Shown here: piece by piece, positions 1-44,600 of the stretch
Layout: every line of letters starts with the position of its first letter
Numbering within the stretch: position 1 is the stretch's first letter
NCBI GenBank assembly: GCA_964016885.1
Contig: OZ024741.1
Coordinates: 79,112,001-79,176,000 of the forward strand
Length of the DNA stretch: 64,000 nucleotides
Reading direction: 5' to 3'
From: Eledone cirrhosa
Lineage: Eukaryota
Translations under genes and position numbers: made by a program
Notes under the pieces: model-generated
What the model saw: only the letters and a program-made list of their open reading frames with translations
The model's database searches: none
What the model was told of the DNA's origin: nothing

Positions 1-1506
1 TGGCATTATCACGCTGTAGACGAACCCAAATAAACAAACAAACAAACAGGCAGAAAAAAACTCCAAAAATGAATAAGCATAAGTTTCATTGTAATGTAGT
101 GTTTGAATGTCTGACTTAGTTTTTCCCTTCCCTTCTCTGTCCGTCCGTTTGCTTTTCTCTTCATTTTTATTTCCTTTACGTTTTTCGTTGTTGCTGTGCT
201 GCTTTGATTTTGATTTTTGTTTTTTTGATTTTGACCGGGTCATCAATTCAGTCTATTTATATATTTTGATGCCTTCCTCTTTTAGTGAGAATTCTACAAT
301 GTAGCAGGGGCTAGCGGGAGAGAATAGCAGCGGTAGTGACAATGAGGCAGCGGCGGCGGCGGCGATGGCGGTGCTGTGCCAGCAGCAACTAGCAGGAGAT
401 AGTGGGAGAGAGTAGCGGCGGTAGCGATAATGAGGCAGCGGCGGTGGCGATGTGGTCGTATTACTGTAGCGATGGTGTTGAAGATGGAGTAGAAATTTGA
501 GTCGACTTGACCAGAGTTTTCATCGTAGTAGTGGTGGTGGCACTGGTGGTGAAATTATCTTTAGTGAAATTATCATTAGTCGCGTATATGTGTTGACATA
601 TTTTCTTAATATTGGAATTAAACATTTTGTTAAAACTAAAACTTTATTTTTTTATTTTTTTTTATTTTGACCGAGTCATCAATTCAGTCTATTTATATAT
701 TTTGATGTTTTCCTCTTTTAGTGGGAATTCTACAATGTAGCAGGGGGTAGCGGGAGAGAATAGCGGCGGTAGTGATATTGAGGCAGCGGCGGCGGTGGTG
801 GCGGCGGTGCTGTGCTAGCAGCAACTAGCAGGAGGTAGTGGGAGAGAATAGCGGCAGTAGCGATAATGAGGCAGCGATGGTGGTGATGTGGTCGTATTAC
901 TGTAGTGACCGTGTTGAAGTTGGAGTAGAAATTTGAGTCGACTTGACCAGAGTTTTCATCGTAGTAGTGGTGGTGGTATTGGTGGTGAAATTATCTTTAG
1001 TGAAATTATCGTTAGTCACGTATATGTGTTGACATATATTTCCTTAATATTGGAATTAAACATTTTGTTAAAACTAAAACTTGAGGCAATAGTAATAGTA
1101 ATTATTATTATTATGCTGAGATTGGTGGTGGTGGTGGTGAAATTGCCGGTATCTGGCTGTTGTGTTTAGTGTACACAGAGGGGTGATGGGGTAGGTGGTG
1201 TATCTAGTTTCTGATGTTGGTGAAATTGCTGTTATTTGGCTGTTCTATATAGTGTAGACAGAGGGGGTTTTCTTCCATTTATAACCATTTTCTTTTATTA
1301 ATATAAAATGTATAATACAAAATTGAATATTTGAGCGATATAACAATATATTATGGATCCGAATTTTTTGGGACTCAAGCCGGGGATGTTTTATGCAACA
1401 TTTGTACTAAGAATTGTTATTTCACAATTGATTTAAATATGTTAAAAAATCAAAACTTACGGGAGCGATTTCTCGACCTTCTATCCACCATGTGTGTCAT
1501 CTTCCC

Positions 1507-1572: not shown

Positions 1573-1573
<1 letters not shown>

Positions 1574-4358
1574 AGTTGCATTTATCTTGCTTTATGTTCA
1601 TACGAGTTATCACCAAGTCACAACCAGTGACCTCAAGAGACAACAATGGTCCGCCATGTTCAAGAAAGAACATACATACTCACACATGCATCTTTAGTGT
1701 TTAGGCTTGTGATGTACTTATATTGATAGAATCTTCCTTAGTATATGGGCAGTTCCCATTAGTACTATCTTTTGTATTTCTCCTATACGCGGGTTTCCTG
1801 GGATTTGCGATAAGTAATCATTAGACCCCTTAGGTATCATTCCCAGAGCGCCTACAACCACTGGTATTGTTTTAGTTCTCAATTTCCACATTTTTCCAAT
1901 TTCTATCTCTAGGTCTTTATATTTGCTCAATTTTTCAAATGTTTTTATAGATACATTCTTGTCTATTGGAACAGACATATCAATTAGCAGGCATACCCTC
2001 TTTTTAAAGTCCTTCAATATTATATCAGGTCTATTTGCATCTATTTTTCGGTCTGTTTGGATGCTAAAGTTCCACAAGATTGAGATGTGATCTTTTTCAA
2101 GTATGGGAGGTGGTTGATGCTCCCACCAATTCTTTTGATGGGGCAGGTCAAAATGCTTACACATTATCCAATGTATGTATTGTGCAGCTCTGTCATGCCT
2201 GTTTAGGTATTCGGTTGGAGCTATAGGACTGCACATTGAAATTATATGGTCAATGGTCTCTGGTTGTTTTTTGCATACACGGCATAATGGGCTGCATCCA
2301 TTTTTTATTATGTTGGCTTGGTAATTTTTTGTTGGCAGACACTGATCTTGTGCTGATATAATCAGTCCTTCAGTCTCTGATTTCAGTCCAGAGGATGCTA
2401 ACCACTGATGGGTTAAAGTTTTGTCAACATCAGGATTGTTAGCTCGCTCTGGGTATTTTCCATACAGAGGCTTTTCTTGCCATTTCTTAGCCAGTTTCTG
2501 TAGCAGTTCTTTCTTTGCAGTTACTTTTACCTGCTTTGCTTTTTCTGTGTTTTCCATTTCAGCAGTAAATGGGACTTCTGAAATTTGTAGTCCATTACTG
2601 TATCTTTGTGCATCTTTTGTAATGGAATATGATCTTTTGATGCTTTCGTGTTTCAAAACGAGTTTGATCATCCAATCATGTGATTCCCTTAGATATGTAG
2701 ATAATCCAATTGTTGCAGTTTTCAACGCAATATCTAACTGGATTAACTGCATTCTGTGCATGGTTAAGAATTTTCTAATTTTTGTATCGAGCCTACAGAT
2801 CTCTGTGCTTGACCAGTTGATGACATTGTAACTGTAGGTTACTACTGGTATGGCAAGCGTGTTTATGGCATCGATCCTATTCCTTGCATTCAATTCCGTT
2901 CTTAAGATTGCTCTTACTCTGCGGTAACATTCCTTCCTTATCCTTTCCCTCATTGTCGAGTGCTTGATTCCGTCTCCTTCACAAACACCTAGATATTTGT
3001 AAGTTTTTCCTTGATCAAGTTCTCTTATCACGTTCCCCCGATCCAGATTAATGTCTGAACTCTTCAGCAGCTTTCCTCTGGTGAACGTTGTTTTGGCGCA
3101 TTTATCTAGTCCAAACTCCATTTTAATGTCATCACTGAACTGCTCCACAGTGGATAATAGCCCTTGCAACTGTTCATCATTTTTTGCAAATAGTTTCAGG
3201 TCATCCATGTAGAATAAGTGATTAATGGTTTTGTCATAGACTTTATATCCATGTTTTGTTTCATTGAGCATTTTACTTAATGGTATAAGTGCGATGCAGA
3301 ATAAAAGCGGTGATAAAGAGTCACCTGAAAAATTCCACAATTAATATTAACTTCTCCAGCTTCCAGTGATTTTGTTTCACTATTCAAAAGGAGTGTCGTT
3401 TTCCATGTCTTCATACTGAATGACAAAAACCTCCTGACAACGGGGGATATTTTGAAAATCTCTAAACATTTTTCAATCCAACTGTGTGGCAAACTATCGA
3501 ATGCTTTTTTATAATCTATCCAATCAATCGATAGATTTTTGTGTCTATTATGACAATCTTCCAGTATCATTTTGTCAACCAAAAGCTGATCCTTACAGCC
3601 ATATGAGCCTCGTTTACACCCTTTCTGCTCAATGGGAAATAGGTCATTTATTATCAGGTGGTCATATGTATATTCAGTTAGGACTGATGTTAAAATGTTA
3701 TACATTGTGGTCAAGCAAGTTATCGGTCTGTAATTTTTGGGATTGTTTGTCTCATCATTCTTCGGAAGCAGGAATGTAATGCCGTTAACTAGCCATGATG
3801 GTATCTTTTCTGGCTCCTTAACTATTTCATTGAAAAGTTGGGCTAACAGTTCATGAGACTCTGTGAAGGCATTTATCCAAAAATTTTGTATTTTGTCTTT
3901 TCCTGGGGATTTCCATTTGCTGGTTTTTCTTAGAGCCAAGCGAAATTGTTCAACTGTTATATTTTCCCATATTTGTTCCTCAAGGTGAGCTGTATCTTTC
4001 ATTTGTCTGTCTATCCATGGGGCATGTATGTTATGAACTTTTTCTTCGGCCCAGATCTTTTCCCAGAATTCTTGCACTTCCTCCTTGGGTGGTATTGATT
4101 TAGCAGTTATTGTTGACTTACCAATTTTTCTGTAGAAGTTTCTTTGGTTGTTTTTGAACATATTATTGTCCTTATAGAATCTAGATCGTTTTTCAAAGCG
4201 CCTTATACGAGCAGCTTTGGCCGACACTTTTTGCTTGATTATTTTTATCAGCATGTCTATGTCACTTGTTGATTTTATACTGTACTTTCTTTTCAATTTT
4301 CTAAGTTTAGTTTGTTTAACATGTTCACCTACTTTATAGTTTGTTAACATTTCTATGT
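1573..4358 (-). mobile_element. R4/Dong-type non-LTR retrotransposon, family A copy 1, 5'-truncated
   Basis: RT followed by CCHC and a restriction-like endonuclease. The 3' UTR matches 18416-18561 and 63400-63644. (TAT)n on both sides. Confidence 0.9.
1718..4350 (-). pseudogene. RT + restriction-like endonuclease, frameshifted near 3330
   Basis: [83 protein letters not shown]-type motif. Confidence 0.92.
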
Positions 4359-4388
4359 CTTATTATTATTATTATTATTATTATTATT
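4359..4388. repeat. (TAT)n between head-to-head R4-A and Tx1 elements
   Basis: Direct reading. Confidence 0.95.
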
Positions 4389-4602
4389 GAATGCCATGGT
4401 TGACGGAGGCTCGGCTCTGTAAGGTATAGTAATTTTTAACCGTTAAAACAATTGTAAATTGTTTAAAACTTGAACCAAATTGTTGATAAAGATACCCTCC
4501 TCCTCGTGAGAGGGGTCTTTCTGTCCGTTATTTGGCCCTTCGGGGTTAAATAACCAGTTATTGGGGTTTTGTACCCAATATTCATTTTAAACAAAAAACA
4601 AC

Positions 4603-6706
4603 ATGGCTACGAAAAAGAAATTTCATACGTCACTCCCACTCATTCCGTCTTCTTCTTCCTCAATCATCACTACAGCACAGAGAAGATTGTCTCTCTCCCT
4701 CCCTTCTTTAAATGTGTCTCTCTCCCTCCCTTCTCTTTCGCAAGTGACGAAAGAAAAGAAAAGTCTCGTGCAAAGGGTGCAAGGTTTCTCCACGACGACG
4801 ACGACAGCGACGAAACAGGTGTGCGGGAAATACGAAAACCCAGTTCATTCGTCTGACGTCAGGAATAATAGCAGTAGCAGCCGTAATAACAACAGCAACA
4901 GTGACAATGAAAACAACAGTAGCAGCCGCAACAGCATCACCAGCAGCATAAACAACAACAGCATTAGCAGCAGCAACACCAACAACAACCACAGCAACAG
5001 CGGCGGAGGCAGTAGTCGTAGTACCTGCAGCAACAACAAAAGTACCAGCAGCTCTGACGACAACAACAACAGCAGCAGCAGAGAAAAACCAATCTCATTT
5101 GCAGGTATTGCGAAAAACTTGGAAACAATCCTCATAACAAATGAGGAATTAGAGGAAGCGAAGAAGATGGTGACAAAGAATGGACACCGAGCAATCTGCA
5201 AGGCAGCGGAAACATTTTTCGAAACCCAAGAGCACTGTACGGTCACGTACCGTACAGTAAGTACAAAATCCCGTAGGGTGGAAAGAGCCACAGAGGCCCA
5301 AATACAAAAAGCCTTGGGGTCTGTGTGGCAGCGGAAAACGCACATCACCCGAGGCAAAAAATATGCCACCGTAGACGTACTTTTTGCCACACCCCAGGAG
5401 GCAAAGGCCCAATCAGTAGTGACCCTAAGGAGCGAGGAAATGGTGTTGGTGCCCTCCTACTGCGGGCAAAAAATTGTGAGGGTCAAACTGACCGACGTCC
5501 CCCCCGGAATGGCCCCTTCTTGGCTGGCCGCGTCTGTCCTCGTCGGAATCGAGGACAAAACAACTGTACTGCAAGTACAGAAAAAAGTAAGAGAAGATTG
5601 GGTAGGCACCTCCATTGAGATGCTAATCCAAACCAACCAGGAGTGCATCGAAGCTATCCCGGATGTGATAGACTTCGATAATGGCACTCAACTGCCCATA
5701 AGTGTTGAGGACAAACGCCCGAAATACTTTCGCTGTGGATCGAAGACTCACCTCAGGGCCTTCTGCAACGAGAAGACCCTGAGAAAGGAGAAAACCCCCC
5801 TCCTTCCGAATCCGGCTCCACGGCTACCAGCAACAGGACAAGCGGCAACCAGGAACGATAGGTCCGTGGCACCCATACCCACTCCACGGAAATCAAAAAC
5901 AGCAGCAGCAGTGGAAATATTAACAACAACAACAGCAATACCAAATGCAGCTGCAACAGAGACTCCAGTGCAAACATCACCAACAACAACAGGTGAAAGA
6001 GTGGAGCTGGTACCCCTCCCCGACCTCACAGAATCAGGCATGGAGTGTGAGGTGGGAGAGGGATGGCAAAAGGTCGTAAGAAGGCACAAACGCAGAAGCA
6101 GCGCATCGTCGCCTTTGAAAAGGGAGGAAAGAAATGAGAAAAGGGTAAAGTCTACTGCAAAGAGACCCACAGCAGCAACACCACCAACACTATCACCACC
6201 CACACTAGCACCACCATCACCACCGGCGACAACCCCACCGCCAACAACACCTTCAACACCACCACCACAAGCACCAACATCGCAAACACAACAACAAAAC
6301 ACACACACCCAGCAACAACGACAAGAAAATAGCAGAACCACACCCCACCCACAGAAAAACAAATGCACGGCAATAAATACACACAACAAGAAACTAATGA
6401 CTTACATAATTGAACACACAGACATTTCACAACAGGACTACATAATACCAGCACCAATCAAAACGCCAACTAACATAAGACTGCTAAAAATAGCACAGAA
6501 ACAATACACAAACATTAAAACGAAATTCCCCAACGCAGTTGGTGATTTCAGGGACCTAGGAGGAACCATCAATCGAAGAATTATATTCAGACATTCTCTT
6601 AGAAGAGCCGACGACCAGCCGAAGGGACGATTCAACGGTCCCTTCACCAGACGATCAAGTGAAAAGGGATGTAAAAACCATCCCTCCTCTACCAAAAGTA
6701 CGGTAA
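4603..6706 (+). CDS. Tx1 ORF1: low-complexity N-terminus, RRM-like region, CCHC knuckle (YFRCGSKTHLRAFC), Pro/Thr-rich tail. Native stop inferred at 6704-6706
   Basis: Homologous to 55924-57912. Alignment with copy 2 (SSEKDGKAVLPLREVR*) shows one extra G near 6667, which explains the 996-aa read-through ORF in the track. Confidence 0.8.
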
Positions 6707-6741
6707 GTGGTCTTTCCCATCTTTTCCACTCTATTTTAAAC

Positions 6742-9700
6742 ATGACCTCACTCAGAATAGGCAGCATAAATGCGCGTGGCTTGGGGTCGTCATGGAAGCA
6801 GGGTCACCTGCTCAACGACCTCAGGTCACTAAACATAGATGTAGTGGCCATCAACGAGACCAGAATCTCCGAAGCACCGGCCTTCGCACCGATCTTCGGC
6901 GGCTACGATGTGTACGCATCTCCCAGCCGTCCTGGATCGGGTGGAGGAGTTGCTGTGCTTTTTCGGAGAGGTTTGGATCTCGCCATACGGGCCATCTTCC
7001 TGGACCCAGAGGGTAAGCTGGTGGTGCTGGACGTGACCAGCGGAGACGGGCAAGCTTTCAGGCTAGTGGCCGTCTATGCCCCGACAGGAGCAGGGCGGCC
7101 TGATTTCTTCCGGCGTCTGGAGACCTTTCTTGGAACGTCCCGCTCTTTATTGTTAGTGGGCGACTGGAACGGGATCTTAGATGCACGCTGGGACTGTGTG
7201 GGATTAGCGGATAGGGGTGGAGGGCGCAAGAGCCTCACCAACCTGCTCAGGCGTTTTGAACTGTCTGACAGGTACCGATTGGATTTCCCGAATGTGCCAA
7301 TGTGGACTTGGACAAATCGCATAGGGTCATCCAGATCATATCTAGATAGAGTATTTTGTAGGGAAATAGATAGGTCTAGCATAGGCTGTCCACAATTCAA
7401 GATAGTCAGCTACACGGACCACAAATTCGTGATCTGTGTGCTTGACTTAGATAGGCTTCATAGACGAGGACCCGGCTACTGGAAGCTAAACGCGTCCTTA
7501 CCAGCGCGCAAGGCCTACAGAGACCGGATTAGCGAACTAGTTAAGCGGGCGTTGACGGGGCCATCGTCAACAACAAGTGGTGGTTTGCTCTGAAAAGAGC
7601 GATTAGAATAGAATCGATTAGGTTTAGTAAGGCTTTAGCAATAGAGAAAAATAGAGCAGAGGGAGAACTAGTTAGAAAATTAGACGAGGCGCTTAGCAAA
7701 GGCATTGCGACCGACGTGCTTGCGGCGAAATGGGCCCTTGACCAATTCTTCAATGCAAAGCACGAAGGCTGCGTTGTCAGAGCAAGGGTGCGTGCTCTCA
7801 GACACGAGGGGACGAAAGCCGTTCAATGGGCCCGAGTGGCTGAGGCGCTTCGTGGCAACAAAGCCACGATGCGATCTTTGGTGGACCACGACGGGCCCAT
7901 GCTACTCGATCCCGGGCAAATGTGTGAAGCTTTTCAGCGACACTTCGCTCAGCTGTTCGGGGGCAGCGGTGGGCCGGGTAGAGGGATGGACTTTAGTGTC
8001 TACCTCGACGGACTGCCGCGGCTCTCGGCCACTGAGGCGAAGTGTTGCGAAAAGCCGATAACAGCCGCTGAAGTAAGGGAGGCAATGACTGGCTGCACAA
8101 GGGGTAAATCGCCTGGTTTGGATGGTCTGCCCTATGAACTTTACGTACAGATGCCAGACTTGTTCGGAGGCCTCTTGGCGGACGTCTACTGCAACTGGCA
8201 ACAGAACGGGAGAATTCCCAGTTCTGTGAGCCGAGGAGCGGTGGCGCTGCTGAGAAAGGATCCGAACAAGGGGGATCACATAGACAATTTCCGGCCCATA
8301 ACTCTGCTAAACACAGAGTTCAAGATTTTGGCCAAGGTGCTAGCAAAGAGGTTGGCGCTTGTCGTTGGTGGTCTGGTGGGAGAGGCGCAGACATGCGCCA
8401 TTCCCGACAGATCCATCCACGACAACCTCCACCTCATGCGATACATCGTAGAGAGGGTAGCTAAGGAACCTGGCACGGGTGGGTCCTTGATCAATTTAGA
8501 TCAGTCGAAAGCATTCGATAGGGTCGACCATCGTTACCTAGCGGCAGTCCTGAGGGCGGCTGGCTTTGGGCCCGTCTTCAGAGGCTGGATCGCTGCCATG
8601 CACAGCGACATCTGCTCTGTGGTGAGAGTGAACGGTCACCTGTCGGAACCGTTCAACATCATGCGCTCGGTCCGCCAAGGATGTCCCCTCTCGTCCCTCT
8701 TGTACGTATTGACTCTCGAGCCATTACTGCACAAACTGGAGACTTTGAGGGGAGTCCCGCGCGAACTAGGATGCGGAAGATCCGTGTCAGCATATGCGGA
8801 CGATGTCACCGTAGTGGTGTCGAACGCCAAACACATCGAGGCGATCGGCACTACACTAAGAGAATACGAAACGGTGACAGGAGCAATGATCAACCAGGAA
8901 AAGTCAGTGGGCCTGCAGCTCGGCACCTGGAGAGGCAGGTCCATGCCGTCCAACAGCGTCGTCGGACGCTGGACGGACCGGTTAAATTGCTAGGGGTCTG
9001 GTTCGGTCCGGACCTCCAGACGGACAAAAACTGGGACGAGGTGACGAGCAGGGTGGCTTCTCTCACCCAGAAATGGGCGGAGAGGAAGCTATCCCTGAAA
9101 GGTCGAGCGGAGGTGGCTAACGCGTACATCGCGTCATCTGCTACCGCCTGACCGTCGTACCTTGTCCTAAGCCTCGCCTGACTGCGCTGGAGCGTTTGCT
9201 CTTTCGCTTTTTGTGGAAGGGACGTGCTCCGATGGTCAGGCGGTCCATCTGTTGTCAACACCCGCTACGTGGAGGGCTGGGCATGCCGTGGCTGATGATG
9301 CGCAGGCACGCGCTCAGGCTACGACATCTCCACCTCTTCCTCGACGGTGATCAGGTGTGGTCGCCGTTTGCTAGGCGCGTATTTCCCCAGCTCGTTTCCT
9401 TGACGGAGCTGCAGTCCTGGGTCAAGCGAAGACCGAGAGGGAGCGCCTGGAGACTGGAATGTCTTCAGGCGCTCACAGCCCTCGACCAATCGGGCAATGT
9501 GATCGGTGGAAACTCCACCTCGGCGTTCTATAGAGGATTAGTGGAGGGGAAGAGCGACGACGTACTTGGGGAAACTCTAGGCGTCGACGAAAATCAACTA
9601 GCCAATCTCTTCGGAAGAACTTTCGGGCCGGGGCCTATGGACAACTTCCAGAAATCTCTGGCCTGGCAGTGCTACCGAGGAGCCTTGCCAGTTCGGGATA

Positions 9701-10152
9701 AACTCTACAGGCATGGAGGTGCCGTCAGCCGGGCATGTCCGAGATGCACGCAGGGCGACGAAACCGTCCTGCACGCACTAGTCCAGTGTCCGAAAATTGC
9801 TGACTTGTGGGTTTATGTCGAACACCTGCTGTCGCGTTTAGGACGGATCCAGCTATCATCTGAGTCCATCGTGAGGATTGCCCCGCCCTCCTCCTTTAGC
9901 CGGGAAGGGCAGGCAGTTTTTATCTGTCTGGTGGCCATGGCGAAAGAGATAGTATGGTGGACACGTTTGAAAGGGCTGAAGACGAGCACTTACCTCTTCG
10001 GTGATGCTCTGATTGACTTTTTCAAATTTCATTTGAAAAGGAAAATCAGAGTAGAGAGGGAAGTGCTCTCTTCCCAGCATTTTGTTGAAAGATGGGTGAG
10101 AGAAGCAAGAATGGCCCGAGTGAATGGGCCTACTCTGAGTATATATCTGTAA
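6742..10152 (+). pseudogene. Tx1 ORF2: APE endonuclease + RT + C-terminal Cys/His motif, frameshifted near 7560, 8975 and 9135
   Basis: IGSINARG, VAINET, VGDWN, SYLDRVF, YTDH; KSPGLDG, DQSKAFDRV, RQGCPLS, AYADD; CPRC..ETVLHALVQC. Confidence 0.93.
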
Positions 10153-10411
10153 ATTAAAGGTGGAAAACTGGGAGAGGGCACTTGCCTTGGTGGTCAGGGT
10201 CATTGTGGCTTTTTACTGGGCTTTCTCCACAAATGTCCCTCCGAAGTCTCCCCCCTATTAGGGAATTTTTCATTGTTATTTTCATTGTTATTTTTGTTAC
10301 ATCCTCTGTTTTTGTTTTTTACACGCAGAAATGCCCATTTGTACCGTCCTGCATTGTCCTGCACTGTCCTTAATGTCTACTTTATGTAAACCCTTGTGGT
10401 TAATAAAGAAA

Positions 10412-10412
<1 letters not shown>

Positions 10413-10443
<31 letters not shown>

Positions 10444-10450
10444 GTTGTTA
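10413..10450. repeat. (ATT)n shared by the Tx1 3' end and the R4-B 3' end (tail-to-tail)
   Basis: Direct reading. Confidence 0.93.
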
Positions 10451-12740
10451 TTCCTTGAATCTCAGTCATTGATGTTGGTTAACTGGAAAGTCCGTTGGAT
10501 TGAATATCAAGCCACTACCTGCAGCCTGAGATATTCAGGACGTATCGGAGGGTTCTTGCTGTTCCAAGCAAGCATGCCTTTTGAAGCGTTCCAAAAAGCG
10601 TGAAGGGGCCGATTTTCTTTAACCATCCCTGGAAACTTTTGGAGATAGTCCCCAGTGCGCCTATGACAATCGGGATCACTTTGACTTCATGGCAGTTCCA
10701 AATCCTTTTCACCTCCCACTTTAGGTCCTGGTATCAGTTAATTTTCTCCCTCTCCTTCTCTTGCACTCTCGTGTCGAACGGGCAGGCCACATCCACAATC
10801 AGACACGATATTTTTTCTTTGTCCACAACCACCAGGTCAGGTCTATTGTGTTCCAGTTTTTTGTCCGTCTGTATCCTAAAATCCCACAGCACCTTCACCT
10901 GATTGTTCTCCATCACCGCCTCTGGCCTATGCTCATACCATTTCTCAGAATGTGGTAAATTGTTTACTTTGCACAGGTGCCAGTGGATCACCCTGCCCAT
11001 CACATCGTGTCTCCAGCCCTTATAGTGGGTCTGGGCTAGGTGTTTACACTCGGACACAATGTGAGCCACAGTCTCCTCTCTCTCTCCACAGATCCTGCAC
11101 AGTGGGCTAGCCTCCTCCTTGTAGATATGGTGCTTGAACCACTTCGTTTTGAGGGCCTGCTCCTGCGCAGCCATTAGCATTCCTTCTGTAGCCTTTTTGA
11201 GGTCTCCTCTTCTCAACCAGTTCCATGTCTGTGGATCTCTAAATTCAGTTTTCTCAAAGAAGGTACTATGAAGGGATTTTCCCTTAAGGCTGCTCTTCCT
11301 CCTTGATGTTATTTCCTCCTTGGACATCCCCTGGCCTACTGTCCCCTCCTTCAGTACAGTTCTGAGCATTGGCTCCTTACTATAGGTCACGTATTTGTAT
11401 AGGTTGTTTTTCTCCATCTGAACACAGTCCTCTATGCTGATAAGACCTCTTCCACCCTCAGATCTCCTTAGGTAGAGTCTATCGACATCACTCCTCTTGT
11501 GGAACATGTTGTAGATAGTCAATAGCTTCCTAGTCTTCCTATCCATTTCTTTTTGTTCAGCAACATTCCATCTCAGAATTCCCGCACTGTACCTAATAAT
11601 AGACACAGCTCGGGAATTTACTGCGCTTATGGCATTTCTGCTGTTCAGATGTGACTTCAATACGCTCCTTACTCTCCGAATGTATTCAGTTCTTAACAAT
11701 TCCTTCATTTTTTGTTCTTTATGCCATCAGCCTCCAGAACGCCCAAATACTTGTATCCTTCCTCAGAGTCAATTTCCTTTATCATCTCACCTGTTGGTAT
11801 CTGGATCCCGTTACTTCTGCTCAACCTACCCCTCTTCATCACAATGACTCCACATTTACCAATACCAAACTGCATACATATATCACTGCTGAAAATACGG
11901 ACAGTGTCAACAAGCACATCCAACTCCTTCTCACTTTTCCCGAAGAGCTTAAGATCGTCCATGAAGAGGAGGTGATCGATGGTAAGCTCTCCCCTTCCCA
12001 ACTTGTATCCTGCTCTCACTTTTCGCAGCATAATGGTCAAGGGGATCAGGGCAAGGACAAACAGAGGGGACAGGCTATCTCCCTGGAAGATACCTCTCTT
12101 GATCTTCACGCTTCCCAAGGATACTCCAGTTGATGTCAACTCTGTCTCCCAGGACCCCATACTCCTGCCTAGCAACTGTCTGATGTTATCTGCCACCCTA
12201 AAGATCTCCAGGCTTTTGGTGATCCAGGAATGAGGCACCATGTCAAATGCCTTTCTGTAGTCTATCCATCCCATGGCAAGATCAGTGTGTCTCCTCCTGC
12301 AATTCCCCATTACCATCTTATCAATAAGTAACTGGTCCTTTGTACCACGTGACTTCTTTCAGCATCCTTTCTGTTCGTCCGGTAACAAGTTGTTTGTGTG
12401 GAGGTGATGGTAGATTTCCTCAGACACACTGCTCGTCAACAGTTTCCACATTACGGACAGACATGTGATAGGTCTATAGTTGGTAACATCATTACCCTTG
12501 ATTCGGTCTTTCATTATCAGAACTGTGGTACCTTTTGTCAACCACTCTGGCACCTCACCCGACACCAAGCAGTCATTGAACATGGCCGTCAGCTTCGGGT
12601 GGAGGGATGTTAAATGTTTAATCCAATACCCCTGCACACCATCTGGGCCTGGTGATTTCCAGTTGGTTAGTTTTTTGGCCTGCCCCTTAAGAGTTTCAAC
12701 TGTGATACTCAAATCAGTTTGTTGTTGTGCCTGCTCACCG
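10451..12740 (-). mobile_element. R4/Dong-type family B copy 1, 5'-truncated, with stops
   Basis: [65 protein letters not shown]. Confidence 0.9.

Positions 12741-12788
<48 letters not shown>
12741..12788. repeat. (ATT)n
   Basis: Direct reading. Confidence 0.95.
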
Positions 12789-12789
<1 letters not shown>

Positions 12790-15700
12790 TTTGAGTCTCA
12801 GTCATTGATGTTATTCAACTGGAAAGTTTGTTGAAATGAATATCAAGCCGCTACCTGCAGCCTCAGATATTCAGGACGTATCGGAGGGTTCTTGCTGTTC
12901 CCAGTAAGCATGCCTTTTGAAATATTCTACAAAGCGGGGCTGGACTAATCTTCTTTAACCATCCTTGGAAACTCTTTGAGATAGTAGCTAGTGCGCCTAT
13001 GACAATCGGGACAACCTTGATTTCATGGCAGTTCCAAATCCTTTTAACTCCCACTTTAAGCCCTGGTATCGATTAATTTTCTCCCTCTCCTTTTCTTGCA
13101 CTCTCGTGTCAAATGAGCAGGCTACATCTACAATCAGGCACGATCTTTTTTCCTTGTCCAAAACAACCAGGTCAGGCCTATTGTGTTCTAATCTCTTGTC
13201 CGTCTGTATCCTAAAATCCCATAGCACCTTCACCTGATCGTTTTCTATCAACGACTCAGCCTTATGCTCATACCACTTCTCAGAATGTGGTAAATTGTTT
13301 ACTTTGCATAGATGACAGTGGATCACCCTGCCTATCACATCATGTCTCCAGCCTCTATAGTGAGTCTGGGCTATGTGTTTACACTCGGATACAATGTGAG
13401 CCACAGTCTCTTCTCTCTCTCCACAGATCCTGCACAGTGGGCTAGCCTCCTCCTTGTAAATATGGTGTTGCACCCACTTCGTACTGAGGGCCTGCTCTTG
13501 CGCAGCCATTAGCATTCCTTCTGTAGCTTTTTAAAAATCTCCTCTTTTAAACCAGTTCCATGTCTGTGGATCTCTAAATTCAGTTTTCCTAAAGATGGTA
13601 CTATGAAGGGATTTTTCATGAAGGTTGCTTTTCCTCCTTGTTATTTCCTCCTTGAACATCCCCTGATCTATTGTCTTCTCCTTCACTACAATTTTGAGCA
13701 TTGGCTCCCTACTGTCAGTCACGTATTTGTGCAGGTTTTGTTTTCTCCATCTGAACACTGTCCTCTATGCTGATAAGACCTCTTCCACCTTCAGATCTCT
13801 TTAAGTAGAGCCTATCGACATCACTCCTCTTGTGGAACATGTTGTAGATAGTCAATAGCTTCCTAGTCTTCCTATCCATTTCTTTTTATTCAGCAACATT
13901 CCATTTCAGAATTCCCGCACTGTACCAAATAATAGACACAGCTCGGGAATTCACTGCACTTATGACATTCCTACTATTTCGATGGGATTTTAATACACTC
14001 CTTACTCTCCTAATGTACTCAGATCTTATCAATTCCTTCATTTTTTTGTTCTTGATGTCATCTGCCTCCAGAACACCTAAATATTTGTATCCTTCTTCAG
14101 TGTCAATTTCCTTTATCATCTCACCTGTTGGTACCTGGATTCTGTTGCTTCTGCCGAATTTACCCCTCTTCATTACTAGGACTCCACACTTATTAACCCC
14201 AAATTCCATACATATATCATTGGTGAAAATACGGACAGTGTCAACAACTCCTTCTCACTCTTCCCAAAGAGTTTAAGATCGTCCATGAAGAGGAGGTGGT
14301 TGATGGTAAGCTCTCCTTTCCCCAACTTGTATCCTGCTCTCACTTTTCGCAATATAACGGTCAGAGGTATCAGGGCAAGGACAACCAGCAGAGGGGACAA
14401 ACTATCTCCCTGGAAGATACCTCTCTTGATCTTCACGCCTCCCATGGATTCTCCACCCGAAATTAACTCTGTTTCCCAGGACTTCATACTTTTGCTCAAC
14501 AACTGTTTGATGTTATCTGCCACCTTGACTATCTCTAGGCTTTTGGTTATCCAAGAATGAGGTACCAGGTCGAATGTGTTTTTGTAATCTATCCATCCCA
14601 TGGCAAGACCAGTGTGTCTCCTCTTGCAATTCCTCATTACCATCTTATAAATAAGTAACTGCTCTTTTGTACCACGGGACTTCTTTCGGCATCCTTTCTG
14701 TTCGTCCGGTAACAAGTTGTTTATGTGGAGGTGATGGTAGATTTCCTCAGACACAATGCTTGTTAACAGTTTCCACATTACGGACAGACATGTGATAGGC
14801 CTATAGGTGGTAACATCATTACCCCTTTCATTACCAGTACTGTGGTACCTTTTGTCAACGACTCTGGTACCTCACCCGACATCAAATAGTCGTTGAACAT
14901 GGTTGACAGTTTCGGGTGGAGGGATATTATATTTTTAATCCAATACCCCTGCACACCATCTGGGCCTGGTGATTTCCAGTTGGTTAGTTTTTTGGCCTGC
15001 CCTTTAAGAGTTTCAACTGTGATACTCAAATCAGGTTGTTGGTGTGCTTGTTCACTAAACTCCTTTTGAACTGTCTCAATCCACACTGCCTGACTATTAT
15101 GTTCAATATCCTGCTCCCATATTCCTCTCCAGAATGTCTTAGTTTGTTCCGCCTCAGGGATCAAGTCGTTGCCTCTTTCTTTCCCTTCAAGCTGTCCAAA
15201 CAGCATCTTCTGTTTGTTGTCAAACATGCGTTTTTGTCTATACTGACTGACTCTGTTCTCATACCGCCTAATCTTTGCACTTTTTGCTACATTGCGTTGC
15301 TTCTATGATAATATTTAATTTTTTCACCCTAGTTTTGTACTTTATTTCTAATCTATCTTTTGTGTCTATGTTTTGTAATGTCCCATTCAGTAAGGATTCA
15401 AGCTTTCCAATGTCTTTTCTCATTTCCTTGATTTGACGATTCAGTCGTTTCTTCCACCAAGGTTCTGATTTTTCTTGTTTGTTGTTTTGCTCTTGTTTTT
15501 ATGCCAAGTAATTTCCTCACCGTATTTGTTGTTGCTTTGAGGATATTGTTACATTGGTGAAGGTTCCTCGCCTCAAGGTATGGGTTGACTTTGTTTACCT
15601 TAGCTGTTGTTTCTTTTAACTTTTTCCTGTCTACAAATCTTAGGTTCATAGGTTTCACACTATCATTGTTCATTTCATCTACCACTAAGTTCTGGATATC

Positions 15701-17607
15701 AACCAAATCTTGTCCTAGCCCGTCAGCATTCATTTCCTCAATGGCCGTATCTTTGTTCCAGATGTTATTTATTTCAGCATTCAGATCATTGTCTGCTTCG
15801 GATGCTTCCTCGGGTCTCTCAACCTCTTCACCTTCATTTCCCACTGGCTCGTTTGCCTGACATACTCCACTCTCCATTTCCAACTTAATCTCTCTGCTCA
15901 GTTCCTCCAGTTCCAACTCGCTTATCCATCCATTAGTTCTTATTACCCGAGCCTGCCCGGCCAGTTTTTGTTCATCTAATTTAAATAGATCAATCTCGTT
16001 CCAGATGTTATACATCCGTTTCCTATAGCCTTTTTCCATGGGGTTACTCTTCAGGTAATATTTCATGACAGTTCTATTCAATTCCTTCGTCAAGTTGCTT
16101 CTTGTTCCTTTCCTTCTTCTTCTTCCTCCAGCACCAGCAGTATTTGGATGACAGCCAGTTCCCTGCTGCTGGGCCAGGGAGCACTTGCTGGGTGAGAGTC
16201 TTTCACAGTCTCCTTTTCACCGTTATTCGAACTGTTTAGGTTCGACATTAAACACTCATATCGAGGATTGGTGAATGTATGGTTGCATAACCACCCATAA
16301 TTTCATCACCCCCAGTGATTTCATCCCCCACCCCCGGTGATTTTAGCGTGGCACCATCACGCTGAAGACGAACATAATTAAATAAACAAATAAATAGATA
16401 AAAACCTTAAAAAATGAACATAAGTTTCATTGTAATGTTTGAATGTGTGACTTATATTTTTTGTTTTTTTTCCTTTTTGCTTTTCAAGGCCAGTAACATC
16501 GGTTACTAGTGTTGTTGTTGCTGCTGCTGCTGTTTTTGATTTTAGCTACAAGGGAAGTAGGGGTTGTTGCGTTCAAAACTTTTGAAATTTGTTTTTCATT
16601 TGCTGTTGCAGTTGTTTTTGTCTGTGTTCTGTTCTGTAATTTTTCGACTTGTTGCTTATTATTATTATTCAAATCCCGCCATGGTTAACTTTACCTTTCA
16701 TCCTTACTGGGTCGATAAAATAAAGTACCAGTAATACACTGAGTAATTGCTGGCCTTGTGCCAAAAGTAGAAACAATTATTATTATAGGGCGGTGGATTG
16801 GCAGTACCGGTAGAGCGGTAGAGGGTCGGACGCCATGCTTTGCAGCAAAGAGTTACGGCCCTTTATGGTCTGAGTTCAAATCCCGCCGAGGTTAACTTTG
16901 CCTTTCATCCTTACGGGGTCGAAAAAATAAAGTACCAGTAATACACTGATATAATTGCTGGCCTTGTGCCAAAAGTAGAAACAATTATTATTATTATTTG
17001 TCATCGTTTAAACTAAACATTTTTTTAAACTAAACATTTTGAGAGAGTTTAGAGATACAACAATAATTATTATGGTGTTGTTGTTAGCTGTTTGACCGGG
17101 ACACTAAATCAGTCTATTTATATCTTTTGGTGTCTTCCTCCTTTCTAGTCATGTGTAGTGGCATTACTACCTTCCCTCTCTTAACAGGAGGTAGTGAAGG
17201 AATAGTGGTGGTAGCGATGATGCAGTGGTGACGGTGGTGATGGGATAGTAGTACTGTAATGATGGTGTTGTTGCTACTGTTGGTTTGTATCTAGCTTAAA
17301 TTTTTGTGGTAGTGGTGGTGGTGTTGGTGGTGAAATTATTTGGCTGTTGTTTTCTTCCATGTGTGACCATTTGTAACCATTTTCTTTTTTGACTATAAAA
17401 TTTCTGATACAAAATTAAATATTAAATATTGGAGCCCTATGCCATAGTGTTATGCGTTGTCACTTCCTGAGAGTTAAGACTGGTGTCTTATGTCCCATTT
17501 GTAATAAGAACTATTCTATCACAATTGTTTTAAATATGTAAAAAATCAAAAACTTACGGAAGCGATTCCATAACACTCTATCCACCATATGCGTATCTTC
17601 CCTTATT
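12789..17607 (-). mobile_element. R4/Dong-type family B copy 2, apparently full length and decayed, with a long 5' leader
   Basis: N-terminal TKELNRTVMKYY..GYRKRMYNIW..EQKLAGQARVIRTNGW (15398-16093), then RT and RLE fragments down to 12863. Leader about 16250-17607. Confidence 0.8.
16668..16998 (+). mobile_element. Two tandem tRNA-derived SINE copies (one 5'-truncated) inserted in the R4-B leader
   Basis: A-box-like tggcagtaccggtag, B-box gagttcaaatccc, core gcctttcatccttacggggtcgataaaataaagtacc, tail ggccttgtgccaaaagtagaaacaattatt. Confidence 0.85.
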
Positions 17608-17616
17608 CACTATTAT

Positions 17617-17860
17617 TTGGCCTTGTGCCAAAAGTAGAAACAATTATTAATACCGCCGAGTACGGTGGATTGGCAGTATCGGTAGAGAGTCGGAGACCAT
17701 GCTTTGAAGCATAGAGTTACGTCCCTTTACGGTCTGAGTTCAAATTCCGCCGAGGTTAACTTTGCCTTTCCTCCTTACGGGGTCGATAAAATAAAGTACC
17801 AGTAATACACTGGGTATTTGCTGGCCTTGTGCCAAAAGTAGAAACAATTATTATTATTTT
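17617..17860 (+). mobile_element. SINE tail fragment plus a full SINE copy of the same family
   Basis: Same head, core and tail as 16788-16998. Confidence 0.85.
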
Positions 17861-17869
17861 TATTTCATT

Positions 17870-18392: not shown

Positions 18393-18415
18393 GTATTATC
18401 ATTATTATTATTATT

Positions 18416-20818
18416 ACAGTTGCATTTATCTAGCTTTATGTTCATACGAGTTATCACCAAGTCACAACCAGTGACCTCAAGAGACAGCAAGGTTCGCCAT
18501 GTTCAAGAAAGAACATACACACAAACACATGCATCTTTAGGTGTTTAGACTTGTGATGTACTTATATTGACAGAATCTTCCTGAGTATATGGGCAGTTCC
18601 CATTAGTACTATCTTTTGTATTTCTCCTATAAGCGGGTTTCCTGGGATTTGAGATAAGTAATCATTAGACCCCTTAGGTATCATTCCTAGAGTGCCTACA
18701 ACCACTGGTATTGTTTTAGTTCTCAATTTCCACATTTTTCCAATTTCTATCTCTAGGTCCTTATATTTGCTCAATTTTTCAAATGTTTTTATAGATACAT
18801 TCTTGTCTATTGGAACGGACATATCAATTAGCAGACATACCCTCTTTTTAAAGTCATTCAGTATTATATCAGGTCTATTTGCATCTATTTTTCGGTCTGT
18901 TTGGATGCTAAAGTTCCACAAGATTGAGATGTGATCTTTTTCAAGTATGGGAGGTGGTTGATGCTCCCACCAATTCTTTTGATGGGGCAGGTCAAAATGC
19001 TTACACATTATCAAATGTATGTATTGTGCAGCTCTGTCATGCCTGTTTAGGTATTTGGTTGGAGCTATAGGACTGCACATTGAAATTATATGATCAATGG
19101 TCTCTGGTTGTTTTTTACATACACGGCATAATGGGTTGCATTCATTTTTTATTATATTGGCTTGGTAATTTTTTGTTGGCAGACACTGATCTTGTGCTGA
19201 TATAATCAGTCCTTCAGTCTCCGATTTCAGTCCTGAGGAGGCTAACCACTGATGGGTTAAAGTTTTGTCAACATCAGGATTGTTAGCTCTTTCTGGGTAT
19301 TTTCCATACAGAGGCTTTTCTTGCCATTTCTTAGCCTGTTTCTGTAGCAATTCTTTCTTTGCAGTTACTTTTACCTGCTTTGCTTTCTCTGTGTATTCCA
19401 TTTCAGCAGTAAATGGGACTTCTGAAATTTGTAGTCCATTACTGTATCTTTGTGCATCTTTTGTAATGGAGTATGATCTTTTGATGCTTTCGTTTTTCAA
19501 AACGAGTTTGATCATTCCATCATGTGATTCTCTTAGATATGTAGATAATCCAATTGTTGCAGTTTTCAACGCAATATCTAACTGGATTAACCCACGTCAT
19601 CCTTCTTTCCTAGGGACATATATTCTATCTGTATCTGCCTTAGGGTGATGCATTCTGTGCATGGTTAAGAATTTTCTAATTTTTGTATCGAGCCTACAGA
19701 TCTCTGTGCTTGACCAGTTGATGACATTGTAACTGTAGGTTACTACTGATATGGCAAGCGTGTTTATGGCATCGATCCTATTCCTTGCATTCAATTCCGT
19801 TCTTAAGATTGCTCTTACTCTGCGGTAACATTCCTTCCTTATCCTTTCCCTCATTGTCGAGTGCTTGATTCTGTCTCCTTCACAAACACCTAGATATTTG
19901 TAAGTTTCCTCTTAATCAAGTTCTCTTATCACATTCCCCCGATCAAGATTAATGTCTGAACTTTTCAGCAGCTTTCCTCTGGTGAACGTTGCTTTGGCGC
20001 ATTTATCTAGTCCAAACTCCATTTTAATGTCATCACTGAATTGCTCCACAGTGGATAATAGCTCTTGCAATTGTTCATCATTTTTTGCAAATAATTTCAG
20101 GTCATCCATGTAGAACAAGTGATTAATGGTTTTGTCATAGACTTTATATCCATGTTTTGTTTCATTGAGCATTTTACTTAATGGTATAAGTGCGATGCAG
20201 AATAAAGGCGGTGACAAAGAGTCACCCTAAAAAATTCCACAATTAATATTAACTTCTCCAGCTTCCAGTGATTTTTTTTTCACTATTCAAAAGGAGTGTC
20301 GTTTTCCATGTCTTCATACTGAATGACAGGAACCTCCTGACAACGGGGGATATTTTGAAAATCTCTAAACTTTTTTCAATCCAACTGTGTGGCAAACTAT
20401 CGAATGCTTTTTTATAATTTATCCAAGCAATTGATAGATTTTTGTGTCTATTATGACAATCTTCCAGTATCATTTTGTTAACCAAAAGCTGATCCTTACA
20501 ACCATATGAACCTCGTTTACACCCTTTCTGCTCATTGGGAAATAGGTCATTTGTTATCAGGTGGTCATATGTATATTCAGTTAGGACTGATGTTAAAATG
20601 TTATACATTGTGGTCAAGCAAGTTATCGGTCTGTAATTTTTGGGATTGTTTGTCTCATCATTCTTCGGAAGCAGGAATGTAATGCCGTTAACTAGCCATG
20701 ATGGTATCTTTTCTGGCTCCTTAACTAGTTCATTGTAAAGTTGGGCTAACAGCCCACGAGACTCTGTGAAGGCATTTATCCAAAAATTTTATAATTTGTC
20801 TTTTCCTGGGGATTTCAA
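18416..20818 (-). mobile_element. R4/Dong-type family A copy 2, 5'-truncated and decayed
   Basis: Near-identical to 1573-3915; flanked by (TAT)n. Confidence 0.92.
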
Positions 20819-20851
20819 TTTATTATTATTATTATAATTATTATAATTATT

Positions 20852-26733: not shown

Positions 26734-26929
26734 TTATTAAAATAACAGATTAAAGTTTAAGCAAAGATTTGCCGTATCCCATTACAAGAACAGACATAAG
26801 ATTGACAAACTAAGATATAGACGTTAAAAAAATTCTTTTAACGTCTATACTAACAAACTAGTAAATTTTGGAGATTGTAACACTAAGATTAAACAGAGGC
26901 TAACACCACCACTCATGTAACCACAACGT

Positions 26930-27065
26930 TACGACCCTTTACGATCTGAGTTCAAATCCCGCCGAGGTTGACTTTGCCTTTCATCCTTACGGGGTCGATA
27001 AAATAAAGTACCAGTAATGCACTGGGTAATTGCTGGCCTTGTGCCTAAAGTAGAAACAATTATCT
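26930..27065 (+). mobile_element. 5'-truncated SINE of the same family
   Basis: gagttcaaatcccgccgaggttgactttgcctttcatcc...ggccttgtgcctaaagtagaaacaatt. Confidence 0.85.
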
Positions 27066-35924: not shown

Positions 35925-36260
35925 GGTTAACAATATAAGTGGATTAGTAGAATCATTAGAGCGTCGGAAAAAATGCTTTGCGACATTTAGTTACAGACGT
36001 TTACGTTCCGAGTTCAAATCCTGCCGAGGTCAACTTTGCTTTTCATCCTTTCCAAGGTTGATAGAATAAAGTACCAGTCACATACCGAGGTCGGCGTAAT
36101 CAACCTTTCGCTCCCTGCAAATTGTTGGTATTGTGTCTAAATTAAAAATCATTATCATTACTGACGTATGTGGAGGTGGAAAAATCGGTAGATCTTCGGA
36201 CAAACGACTTTGCTGTCTTTAGTTCCTAAGTTTAAGTTCCGCCGATGTCAACCCTCCTTT
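35925..36260 (+). mobile_element. Old SINE copy followed by a second partial SINE head
   Basis: tacgttccgagttcaaatcctgccgaggtcaactttgcttttcatcc..aataaagtaccag. Confidence 0.7.
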
Positions 36261-41642: not shown

Positions 41643-44600
41643 TTAATTTCAAGAACGTCAGTATTCCGTGTGTAATAATTCTCGATTATCATTGGTTCAT
41701 AGGTTTCAAACGACTCCGCCCACCTCAATGACGCCAAACTGAAATTAATATGCATAATGCCAATGAGGGAGTGAGAGGGGAGAGTGTGAACGCTGTGTTC
41801 AATAACTATTAACATGTGTGCGTGTGTATGTACGTGCGCGTATATTTATGTGTGTGTGCGTGCGTGCAGCGTTCCACAGAAAGTAAAAACTATCAACATG
41901 TGTGAGTGTGTGCGTGTGTAAGTTTACGTGCGTGTGCGCGTTTCCATGCGTGTATGTGTGTGGAGTTCCACAATCGCCACGCAATTTATTTGTCTGTGTG
42001 CCTGTCTGTCAGTCTAACATACACAGAGTTGTGAAGGGAGTAAATAGGGACCTTTCTTTACATTGACGGACATCTTTTATATTTATTATTGTGTCATTTT
42101 TTGACAATTGCTCGAAATGAATACTGATAATAAAAGTAATTCGACTTTATCAAACAGTGAACTACAGCGGCGACGGCGTGCAGCCAGCAATGAAGAAAAA
42201 CGGGCCGAACAGCGCCATCGGAACGCCGAACTTCAGAGGCGAAGACGTACCGCCATGAATGAAGAGGAGCTGGCTGAACAACGCCAACGAAACACTGGAG
42301 CCAAGCAGCGACGCCGTGCTGCAATGGTTGAAGACGAACTCGCTGAGCATCATCAGCAGATGGCCAGAATTCAGCTGCAACGTGAAGAGGAGCTGGCTGA
42401 ACAGCGCCAGCGCAATAAGAAATTCAGAGAATGTGTCGCCAAAGTGCTCCTCATTCCAGTAAAGCGGCTAGAAGGCGAAGGAATGATATTAAAAATGGAT
42501 CATGGCAACCGTGTCATTTTCAGATTGGTGGACGAGCAGAGTGTCCACATTGCGGAGCATTGCTTTGGAGGCACGAAAAGACGTGGACCACAATGTGCTG
42601 TCATAAAGGAGCAGTTCAACTAGAACCCTTGCGAATGCCGGATGATGAGGATTCACCGGAGTTTAAAATACTAAGTATGTGGGGTGATCAAGGAGACCGA
42701 GGTAGATTACTGCGCAAATATTCGCGGCAAATTAACAATTCATTAGCTTTAGCATTGCAGAGAGTTAGTGAGATGTTTGAGAGTGGAGCATGGCAACCGA
42801 ATGTAGTCATTCAAGGCTGTTTGTATCATTGTATCGGTAATTTAGAAGTTACCCCAGGAGAAAGGCCTCGATTCGCTCAAATTTACGTTAACGATCCAGA
42901 TTATAGTGAATCGGAGGAGGATATCAGGATCGGTTGAATGAAGTTGCCGGGAAATATAACTGAACTTGAACGGCAAAGGCTAAGTGATTTGATCCGTGAT
43001 TTGCAATCATGGCGTAGACAGTGTAATCCTTATGTTATGGATTTCATGTTGGTGGCTGAACTTCAAAATGTTCAGCAGCAAACATTGGTGATTAAGGCTG
43101 ACGCAGTGCCAAGGAATCAATACGAACGGCGATATAATGCCCCTGAAGGATTTCGTGAAGTTGCTGTGTTGATTGACGATAAGCCTGGATCGAGAGATAT
43201 CGTCCTCAATCGCAGAGATGGTGGTCTCAAGACTATCAATGAGTCAAATAGGGCATACGATCCATTGCATTATGTTCTTTTATTCCCAAAAGGGGAAAAT
43301 GGATGGAACATGTCTGTTCATTTAGATGATCATGAGAATCAGCATCAACAGGGAGGTGGCAATAGACACAATAATTCGATTCGCGACTTTTACGCGTTCC
43401 ATTTGAACGAGAGGAATCAACAGAGAAATGCGCTATTTCAAGCCAGCAGATTGTTCCCGGAATACTGTTGTATGGCATTCGCAAAGATCGAAAATCAAAG
43501 GCTAACTTATATTGCTATACATCAGCAACATATCAGAGCGGAATTGTATAATAATATACAGGATACGATAACAGCCGATGATGCCAATTACAAGCAAATT
43601 GGTCGACGCATCATTTTGCCATCGTCGTTCACCGGCGGCCCGAGATATATGAACATTCGCTATCAGGATGCAATGGCTATTGTCAGAAAGTTTGGAAAGC
43701 CAGATTTGTTTATAACGGTTACATGCAATTCTGAATGGACTGATATTAAGGATGCACTTTTGCCAGGACAACAGCCAAAGGACCTTCCTGATATTGTGGC
43801 AAGAGTATTCAAAAGATATCTGAAAAAGATAATGGATGATGTGGAAAAAGAGGGAATCTTTGGAGGTATAGTTGCTTTTACATACGTAATTGAATTCCAA
43901 AAAAGAGGATTGCCACATGCACATTTGCTGATCATTTTACATAGAGATTGCAAATTGAGATGTGCTGAGGATGTCGACAGCATTGTGTGTGCTGAACTGC
44001 CGGAGAATGAGGCATACGCAACTTGGTGGCAAAGTCAATGGTGCACAACCAATGCGGAGTGGCAAATCGGAAAGCGCCTTGCATGAAAAATGGCCAATGC
44101 AGTAAGCACTTTCCGAAATCTTTTGTCACGAACACTTCCTGGAACGATGGGGATGCTCATCCCTCATACAGAAGACGGTCACCTGCAGATGGCGGTTTGG
44201 TAGAAAATGTAAACGGTCGACAGATTACAAATCAATGGGTTATGCCATACAATCCATATTTGATTATGGAATATCGTTGTCATATTAATGTGGAAATTTG
44301 TAGCTCAGTGAAAGCTTGCAAATATGTATTCAAATATGTTTACAAAGGTCATGATCGGGCAATGATCAATGTCAGGAACGAGGAAGCGAACCAAGGAGTT
44401 GAAGTTGGCAGGTTCCAGGATGTTCGCTCGATTGGATCTAGCGAAGCTTACTGGAGATTGTTCGATTTTCATCTCAATGAACGCAAACCCAGCGTTCAGA
44501 AACTGACGGTTCACTTAGAGAATAGGCAAATGCTCTGTTTTCAGGACACTAGAAGAGGTGTCGAAAGAATTGCTAACGCACCACCTCCTAAGACGGAATT

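Follow-up and report, generated by a model that had tools for sequence, protein, structure and literature searches.

On the minus strand of the window analysed here (a single stretch of 64,000 nt), we found two copies of a long leader that begins directly after TAA repeats and carries splice-like signals at both of its ends. We propose that this leader is a facultatively spliced, promoter-bearing 5' UTR intron of a TAA-targeting retrotransposon of Dong/R4 type. Judged from sequence features, this reading has a probability of about 0.5.

The window consists of AT-rich animal DNA in which retroelements are nested at TAA repeats. Along the minus strand, the order begins with a piece of a family A element of the restriction-like endonuclease (RLE) type (20821-18394), TAA, a short older 3' end, SINEs and the leader of copy 2 (17602-16249). 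It continues with the family B ORF (16248-12863), (TAA)16, a truncated family B copy and a plus-strand Tx1-like element (4389-10452), and it finishes with TAA, a truncated family A copy, (TAA)22 and the leader of copy 1 (1506-14). Family A is represented by three 5'-truncated RLE copies that are 96-98% identical (1573-4359, 18394-20821 and 61833-63569); its 3' UTR contains AACATGGCGG, presumably a YY1-like word, directly upstream of the TAA array of leader 1. Elsewhere in the window we detected the remains of a Helitron-like Rep and PIF1 helicase (42105-46173, plus strand) and an ORF (49627-50463, plus strand) with no Pfam match at E 0.01, whose C-terminal part we take to be similar to a Penelope-type GIY-YIG endonuclease. 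The SINEs are, we assume, octopus-like. Dong-R4, L1-Tx1 and SINEs are described as active in Octopus vulgaris in the accessible part of PMC13282606, and passages of PMC10294476 describe R4-Dong, within the molluscs, as almost restricted to cephalopods.

The body of copy 2 is a family B ORF on the minus strand (12863..16248) with reverse transcriptase (RT), CCHC and restriction-like endonuclease regions and several frameshifts and stops. It is followed by a short 3' UTR with a (TAA)16 tail (12741..12862, minus strand), behind which lies another family B copy (12738-10452; 88% identity) that is truncated at its 5' end. With tblastn, the ORF was recovered as seven segments in changing frames with two stops; one frame break lies near 16206, at which a 10-base indel distinguishes the contigs of run X4 from those of X5. 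Copy 2, an element of Dong/R4 type, is frameshifted and dead. The pieces of family B tile residues 53-1158 of the intact protein P0001 at 50-70% identity, with Pfam RVT_1 within 14179-14871 and no Pfam family in the N-terminal pieces. The translation of 12997-13530 contains CRICGEREETVAHIVSEC, RHD and PDLVVLD...IVDVAC, along with a weak zf-RVT match, and we take its PD..D motif to be that of a restriction-like endonuclease. As in R4/Dong elements, there is a single ORF with an RT domain and without an APE endonuclease, and a C-terminal CCHC together with the PD..D endonuclease motif; TAA is found at both ends, as for Dong. Among solved structures, R2 proteins are nearest to P0001 (E 1e-29). 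A quick RT tree of unnamed relatives, with no named R4, Dong or Rex6 member, places family B with relatives bearing the UTR module described below (a 30-row group, SH-aLRT 92). By layout and TAA target, family B fits a Dong/R4-type element. No GIY-YIG family was found in family B with Pfam, and its layout is RT plus RLE, unlike that of Penelope-like elements, with which it is compared by mode of action only.

Both leaders open with GGGAAGAT directly after TAA, at 17602 in copy 2 and at 1506 in copy 1. Upstream of copy 2 there is a SINE fragment and after it a short, degenerate TAA run; the run of copy 1 is (TAA)22 at 1507-1572. The putative exon 1, which contains ATGGTGGATAGA, measures 45 nt in copy 2 (17558..17602, minus strand), and the corresponding 5' block of copy 1 measures 46 nt (1461..1506, minus strand). 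The donor GTAAGTTTT follows on the minus strand at 17557 and 1460, 45 and 46 nt from the 5' start. The intron-like part extends over 1196 nt in copy 2 (16362..17557, minus strand), with a GTAAGT donor, a CAG acceptor and 19 ATGs, and over 1447 nt in copy 1 (14..1460, minus strand), with a 436-nt tandem duplication and 15 ATGs. Both end in CAG after a T-rich, AG-free tract, the acceptor G being at 16362 and 14. Within copy 2, a conserved 5' block (17367..17602, minus strand), about 75% identical to copy 1, is the likely promoter region, and a conserved 3' block (16362..16460, minus strand) terminates in GTTCGTCTWCAG. The putative exon 2 of copy 2 has 113 nt (16249..16361, minus strand), corresponds to an ancestral UTR module (model positions 74-143) that distant relatives lacking the intron also have, contains a local duplication, and leads to the family B start codon 113 nt past the acceptor. 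A preliminary description of this DNA had given the same donor and acceptor positions, all exact, and had both leaders starting at TAA and ending in a T-rich tract plus acceptor, which our analysis confirms. Its statement that the acceptors lie just upstream of the ORF needs refining for copy 2, whose ATG is 113 nt away, and reaches beyond the window for copy 1, of which only the first 13 nt of exon 2 (1..13, minus strand) are inside, the remainder and the ORF lying to the left of the window. These data support the leader as the element's own 5' end, and they support a shape like that of a U2 intron.

The U2 features were found in both leaders: GT...AG ends with a GTRAGT donor, and a polypyrimidine tract with an AG-free zone before the YAG. 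GTAAGT is the sole GTRAGT in each leader, with 25 GTAAGT in the 64 kb on both strands. Ranked by pyrimidine richness and AG-free length, 53 and 27 of the 3450 YAG sites of the 64-kb window equal the two acceptors (top 1.5% and 0.8%); the pyrimidine fractions before them are 0.70 and 0.75, and the AG-free stretches 44 nt (copy 2) and 47 nt. Although the letters of the T tract differ between the leaders, both have preserved it free of AG. The chance of meeting such a donor is about 1% in any 50 nt, and that of an acceptor of this kind about 5% in any 120 nt, figures that count once, as the two copies share an ancestor, and that concern features picked after the fact. Allowing up to three mismatches, the acceptor 18-mer occurs twice in the window against 0.07 expected. 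The branch point consensus is YTRAY; a scan near the acceptors gave a single TTAAT, some 20 nt before the acceptor of copy 2, and none in copy 1. The leader of copy 1 also has four internal YAG sites equal in strength to the terminal one. From the ATG of ATGGTGGATAGA to the donor the distance is 31 nt in each copy, and the upstream ORF that this ATG opens closes at codon 11 in both after in-silico splicing, versus codons 25 and 13 unspliced. Of at least 3830 joints in the sequencing runs compared, none of which is recorded as RNA and two of which (X1 and X6) were counted incompletely, the 15 listed all fall within SINEs, and none of these is at the leader splice sites.

Between the two leaders, 142/183 aligned columns agree in the first ~190 bases of the intron-like part and 79/92 in the last ~95, and a middle piece of 170 nt is 72% alike. 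In bins of 20 columns, the donor bin has 18/20 identities, as has the next one, and a bin 220 columns in has 19/20. The splice sites are not conservation peaks; conservation spans ~230 nt at the 5' side and ~110 nt at the 3' side. The ~50-nt conserved block with splice sites of the preliminary description is real, then, as to the block and too narrow as to the conservation, and its view that the sequence between has diverged was overstated. Block-wide conservation favours a different reading, namely that the leader is a long 5' UTR seldom or never spliced, in which GTAAG is a factor site or a U1-binding site aiding transcription, the 3' 12-mer pairs with exon 2 and the AG is inherited from a TAG. 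We regard this as possible, if on balance unlikely. It also draws on the six ATGs that would stay in exon 2 after splicing had removed 19 (copy 2) and 15 (copy 1) upstream ATGs, and on human L1, where according to portions of PMC5860796 a RUNX3 site contains the conserved donor and most UTRs escape splicing. Against it, chance would hardly place an AG-free T tract of 44-47 nt with a CAG at one end of an added AT-rich stretch and a perfect donor at the other.

Pairing of the acceptor bears on the same alternative. In the fold of the genomic RNA, the acceptor AG is predicted to be paired with a probability of 0.9-1.0 (-19.4 kcal/mol, z -1.7 to -2.2), which speaks for the unspliced UTR; however, an equal gain was obtained for 15% of 333 pyrimidine-rich YAG decoys and for 5% of 2060 random 13-mers. 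The hairpin is not special, because decoys gain as much on the G-rich exon 2. A fold that buries the acceptor could favour intron retention, though decoys match it in 5-15% of cases.

As to insertions, the 430-bp duplication noted earlier was found in copy 1 as 436 nt (214-644 / 650-1082, 92% identity), and the two SINEs reported for one leader are one full and one partial copy in leader 2 (16668..16998, plus strand), antisense to it and at short TAA runs. Further SINE copies lie at 17618-17861, 26928-27063 and 35939-36089, and those in leader 2 are 93-94% identical to other copies. The earlier argument that an intron had tolerated these insertions is weak: copy 2 is dead, its SINEs may post-date its death, and they consequently say little about an intron. 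Within the leader we found no stop-free frame of at least 100 amino acids and no tRNA. We also considered a layout in which the intron would end in a copy of exon 1, and rejected it, as the longest shared word is 5 nt in each copy.

We then compared the leaders with the 5' UTRs of 96 related loci (80 of 208 confirmed plus 16 from a second set), a DNA set that leaves out the closest protein relatives P0001, P0195-P0197 and P0002. A TAA- or TGA-type repeat array is present upstream in 20 of the 23 relatives' element starts examined. In these 20 array-anchored relatives, which include several near-duplicates (~15 families by eye) and three start codons set by hand, the UTR has 100-469 nt and a GC content of 0.47-0.61, versus 1354 and at least 1506 nt and 0.37-0.39 for the leaders of the window; GTRAGT occurs in 1/20 of these UTRs and a strong acceptor in 0/20. 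A blastn search with the leader against the 96 loci gave no match. By contrast with the leader, the part after the acceptor has relatives: a profile of eight relatives' UTRs had two matches in the window (E 0.0007 and 0.002), and the match begins with model position 74 at 16362, the acceptor G, and extends to 16252. A UTR module is common to ten loci (L003, L005-L009, L012, L017, L020 and L025). Since UTR homology starts at the acceptor and the relatives lack the leader, the 113 nt are ancestral and the upstream kilobase added. The leader is a derived addition before the relatives' short UTR.

Exon 1 had no match to the relatives' UTR profile at E up to 10. Its decoy-join rank was 10/1227 in copy 2 and 121/1479 in copy 1, at the best length tried, and the spliced join scored above the genomic join in 6/6 comparisons, with window-wide fractions of only 0.02-0.29; these scores were not accepted as proof of homology between exon 1 and the relatives. 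The 5' edge of the module at position 73-74 is also found in L015 and L028, with no intron evident there, and TAG is present at the module edge in 8/8 profile rows, so the acceptor AG may be inherited from an ancestral TAG. Given that exon 1 lacks a profile match and that the edge is shared with L015 and L028, the leader including exon 1 is better seen as a replacement 5' end.

Our survey of the relatives provided several observations in their own right. The UTR module before the ATG (the ten loci and 16361-16249) contains a GTGAT/GTCAC hairpin with two-sided change in 3/8 rows and often a three-codon upstream ORF, and is a possible translation-start element. In L015 (3360-3830), the UTR of a second element has a repeated AGGAGAAGGAAAACTC module ahead of the shared UTR module, which we assume to resemble RTE 5' UTRs. 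Ten other loci (L011, L013, L014, L018, L019, L027, L029, L035, L037 and L064) have a conserved motif in the first ~70 nt after the TAA array, consisting of GCGCCAG, a hairpin and TAATATCGG..TTGGTG.CCGACGCT..CTGGACC, with crossing complementary segments; it may be an uncatalogued self-cleaving RNA, and had no Rfam match in those of the ten that are among the 13 loci scanned. L081-L096 are R4-like animal retrotransposons in prokaryote genome records, likely host contamination of assemblies, and the protein P0004 is built from the N-terminal 84 residues of such an element, present seven times in tandem.

The window also holds two full-length Tx1/L1-like APE elements that start right after TAA arrays (4389-4465, plus strand, and 58030-58121, minus strand). 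The 5' end of the first, an element unrelated to family B, shares the first ~80 nt of the leader, with GTAAG at 4419. Across the window, a pattern of the shared 5' block, built post hoc, matches exactly three places, the two leaders and 4389. The score of the leaders against this 5' end was reached by 0/3000 and 5/3000 resamples, versus 702/3000 and 30/3000 for the 5' end of the second Tx1-like element; the 4389 element is the third-best place in the window for the block of copy 1 (47 vs 39 for the next) and ties for third for that of copy 2. The two Tx1-like elements have different ORF1 and 5' ends and RT regions that are 95% identical, which suggests 5'-end swapping among them. Promoter replacement is frequent in non-LTR elements according to sections of PMC2881922. 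The sharing of the first ~80 nt, donor included, points to a swapped promoter cassette, and the conservation of the donor block may consequently reflect promoter function. Such a cassette supports a promoter role and would explain the block-wide conservation, and it fits both the intron reading and the rarely spliced UTR. The latter gains from two details: the best acceptor before the ATG (4603) of the 4389 element is a moderate CAG at 4557 (pyrimidine 0.60), a strong CAG at 4675 being inside ORF1, and the second Tx1-like 5' end has GCAAAG in place of the donor GTAAG.

The block shared with the 4389 element also bears on whether the leader belongs to the retrotransposon at all. It might be host DNA (the first exon and intron of a gene, or a flank) that was fused once to a 5'-truncated element and spread by duplication at the DNA level, never having been reverse-transcribed, as would suit two visible copies in one nest, 16 kb apart, with the ORF of copy 1 outside the window. 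We consider this very unlikely: an unrelated element opens with the same block, the two copies begin at one and the same base after TAA with different upstream neighbours, and diverged pieces of the leader occur in two organisms. One contig of run X1 (organism A) covers 17314-17587 with 23 other letters, and one of X5 (organism B) covers 17307-17574 with 30 other letters; they cross the donor with 30 and 17 nt on the exon side, short of the 31 letters per side that defined a donor crossing. Diverged relatives of the 5' block are present in contigs of both organisms. In X1, the summed contig depth over 17406-17567 was 13,256 and 28,487, versus 3-15 for single listed contigs, and 19,554 and 18,195 in the bins flanking the acceptor, a weak hint of many leader-bearing copies, as depth is not copy number. 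The leader may not be on every copy, since record 12 of X4 and record 30 of X6 align up to the ATG and continue with 170 and 627 nt upstream that do not align to the window; these may be other subfamilies, spliced forms or breaks at the local duplication. X4 had no cover at 17406-17486 while the ORF was covered, and this was not counted as evidence.

Other searches for the leader and its element were negative in the sets covered. The 5' block pattern had no match in metagenome contigs or in viral contigs, and the shared donor pattern occurred in 0/105 loci. The acceptor 17-mer had nine matches in viral contigs, none encoding a relative, protein scans of viral contigs confirmed no relatives, and a protein search at short length gave no match. 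Leader motifs were not found in the supplement of PMC13282606 (one file, 5,371 characters), nor in part of the supplementary files of PMC9115989.

A further alternative is that the 5' block is a small structured RNA, a self-cleaving ribozyme or a spliced-leader-like RNA, that defines the 5' end as do the HDV-like ribozymes of Dong/R4. The available part of PMC3774820 places the 5' junction of Dong at TAA repeats, where in B. mori its HDV-like ribozyme self-cleaves, and the block here likewise starts with G at the TAA junction and has partly complementary ends. However, no Rfam family came near threshold in 1-21000, the predicted fold of the block is no more stable than those of shuffled sequences (z 0.02 to 0.48), and no HDV, twister or hammerhead pattern was found by a script that also found none in 20 relatives and so had no positive control, which leaves this explanation very unlikely. 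Rfam gave nothing near threshold in 13 relatives, and no match to spliced-leader RNA in 1-21000 at E up to 5.

Under the intron reading, the 5' cassette would comprise an RNA polymerase II promoter and a short first exon, gained by a promoter swap, and polymerase II would start at the TAA junction from this internal promoter. Most of the RNA would be spliced and translated, free of the 15-19 upstream ATGs; the unspliced RNA would be the template of the sole copies that keep the promoter, and spliced copies, as in human L1, would be unable to spread further. Elements copied through RNA normally lose introns. Here the putative intron would be kept because it holds the element's own promoter: if spliced copies are dead ends, it persists by selection, and no special mechanism of reverse transcription is needed. 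Action in cis is the usual assumption for RLE proteins; it would favour spliced RNA as template and counts against the intron reading. A more ambitious version holds that in this animal lineage a portable cassette of exon 1 and intron promoter moved between unrelated TAA-targeting RLE and APE elements and replaced an ancestral ribozyme-type 5' end, that a real and efficiently spliced intron is kept through target-primed reverse transcription, and that spliced RNA would serve for protein and unspliced RNA as template, the RLE protein acting on the latter in trans. Taken as a whole, this version is doubtful.

Intron retention is treated, in the portions of PMC2377424 and PMC8557442 at hand, as a mark separating Penelope-like from non-LTR elements. 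If true, an RLE element with a dedicated intron of a kilobase would blur that dividing line, and it would show a ribozyme-led clade changing over to a polymerase II promoter of its own; cis-preference could then be tested directly, by setting the ratio of genomic copies without and with the intron against that in RNA. If splicing is rare, the case reduces to an invertebrate parallel of L1 5' UTR splicing plus promoter swapping, of modest interest.

In the literature reached, mostly open-access and with Repbase and Dfam outside its scope, we found no published intron in an R4/Dong element; none is described in the consulted sections of PMC4640811, PMC9115989, PMC8967140, PMC5718144, PMC2911113, PMC8501958 and PMC8226300. 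Family B is like Dong (Bombyx mori) and R4 (Ascaris) in its single ORF with RT, C-terminal CCHC and restriction-like endonuclease, and like Dong in its TAA 5' junction and TAA tail. Dong and R4 start, according to the available text of PMC3774820, with an HDV-like ribozyme; family B has an AT-rich leader of 1.35-1.5 kb with splice-like ends, in which no ribozyme was detected by scans that were negative in the sampled relatives as well. Penelope of D. virilis has a 75-bp intron 46 bp from its start, inside the promoter (PMC2377424, in part), and both spliced and unspliced RNA exist, spliced RNA being the majority (parts of PMC2377424 and PMC8557442). Penelope and Chlamys-3_cRei have, as proposed for the leader, a 5' UTR intron that is kept in genomic copies and overlaps an internal promoter, with a donor ~46 nt in (same sources); Penelope-like elements differ in their GIY-YIG endonuclease and pseudo-LTRs and belong to a different class. 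As reported there, their introns of 75 and 398 nt are spliced by the evidence of RT-PCR or long reads, whereas the putative 1.2-1.45 kb intron here is predicted from its sequence. A 5' UTR intron in a non-LTR element also has a precedent that the preliminary description missed, human L1, whose 5' UTR splicing yields SpIREs, copies that lose promoter activity and are dead ends (PMC5860796, in the part available). L1 resembles the element described here in being of non-LTR type and in having, close to the 5' end, a conserved donor, along with acceptors in its UTR; in L1, according to the same part, splicing is rare and seen as a cost, and the donor is kept for a RUNX3 site, whereas here one strong acceptor ends the added stretch, which looks more like a dedicated intron.
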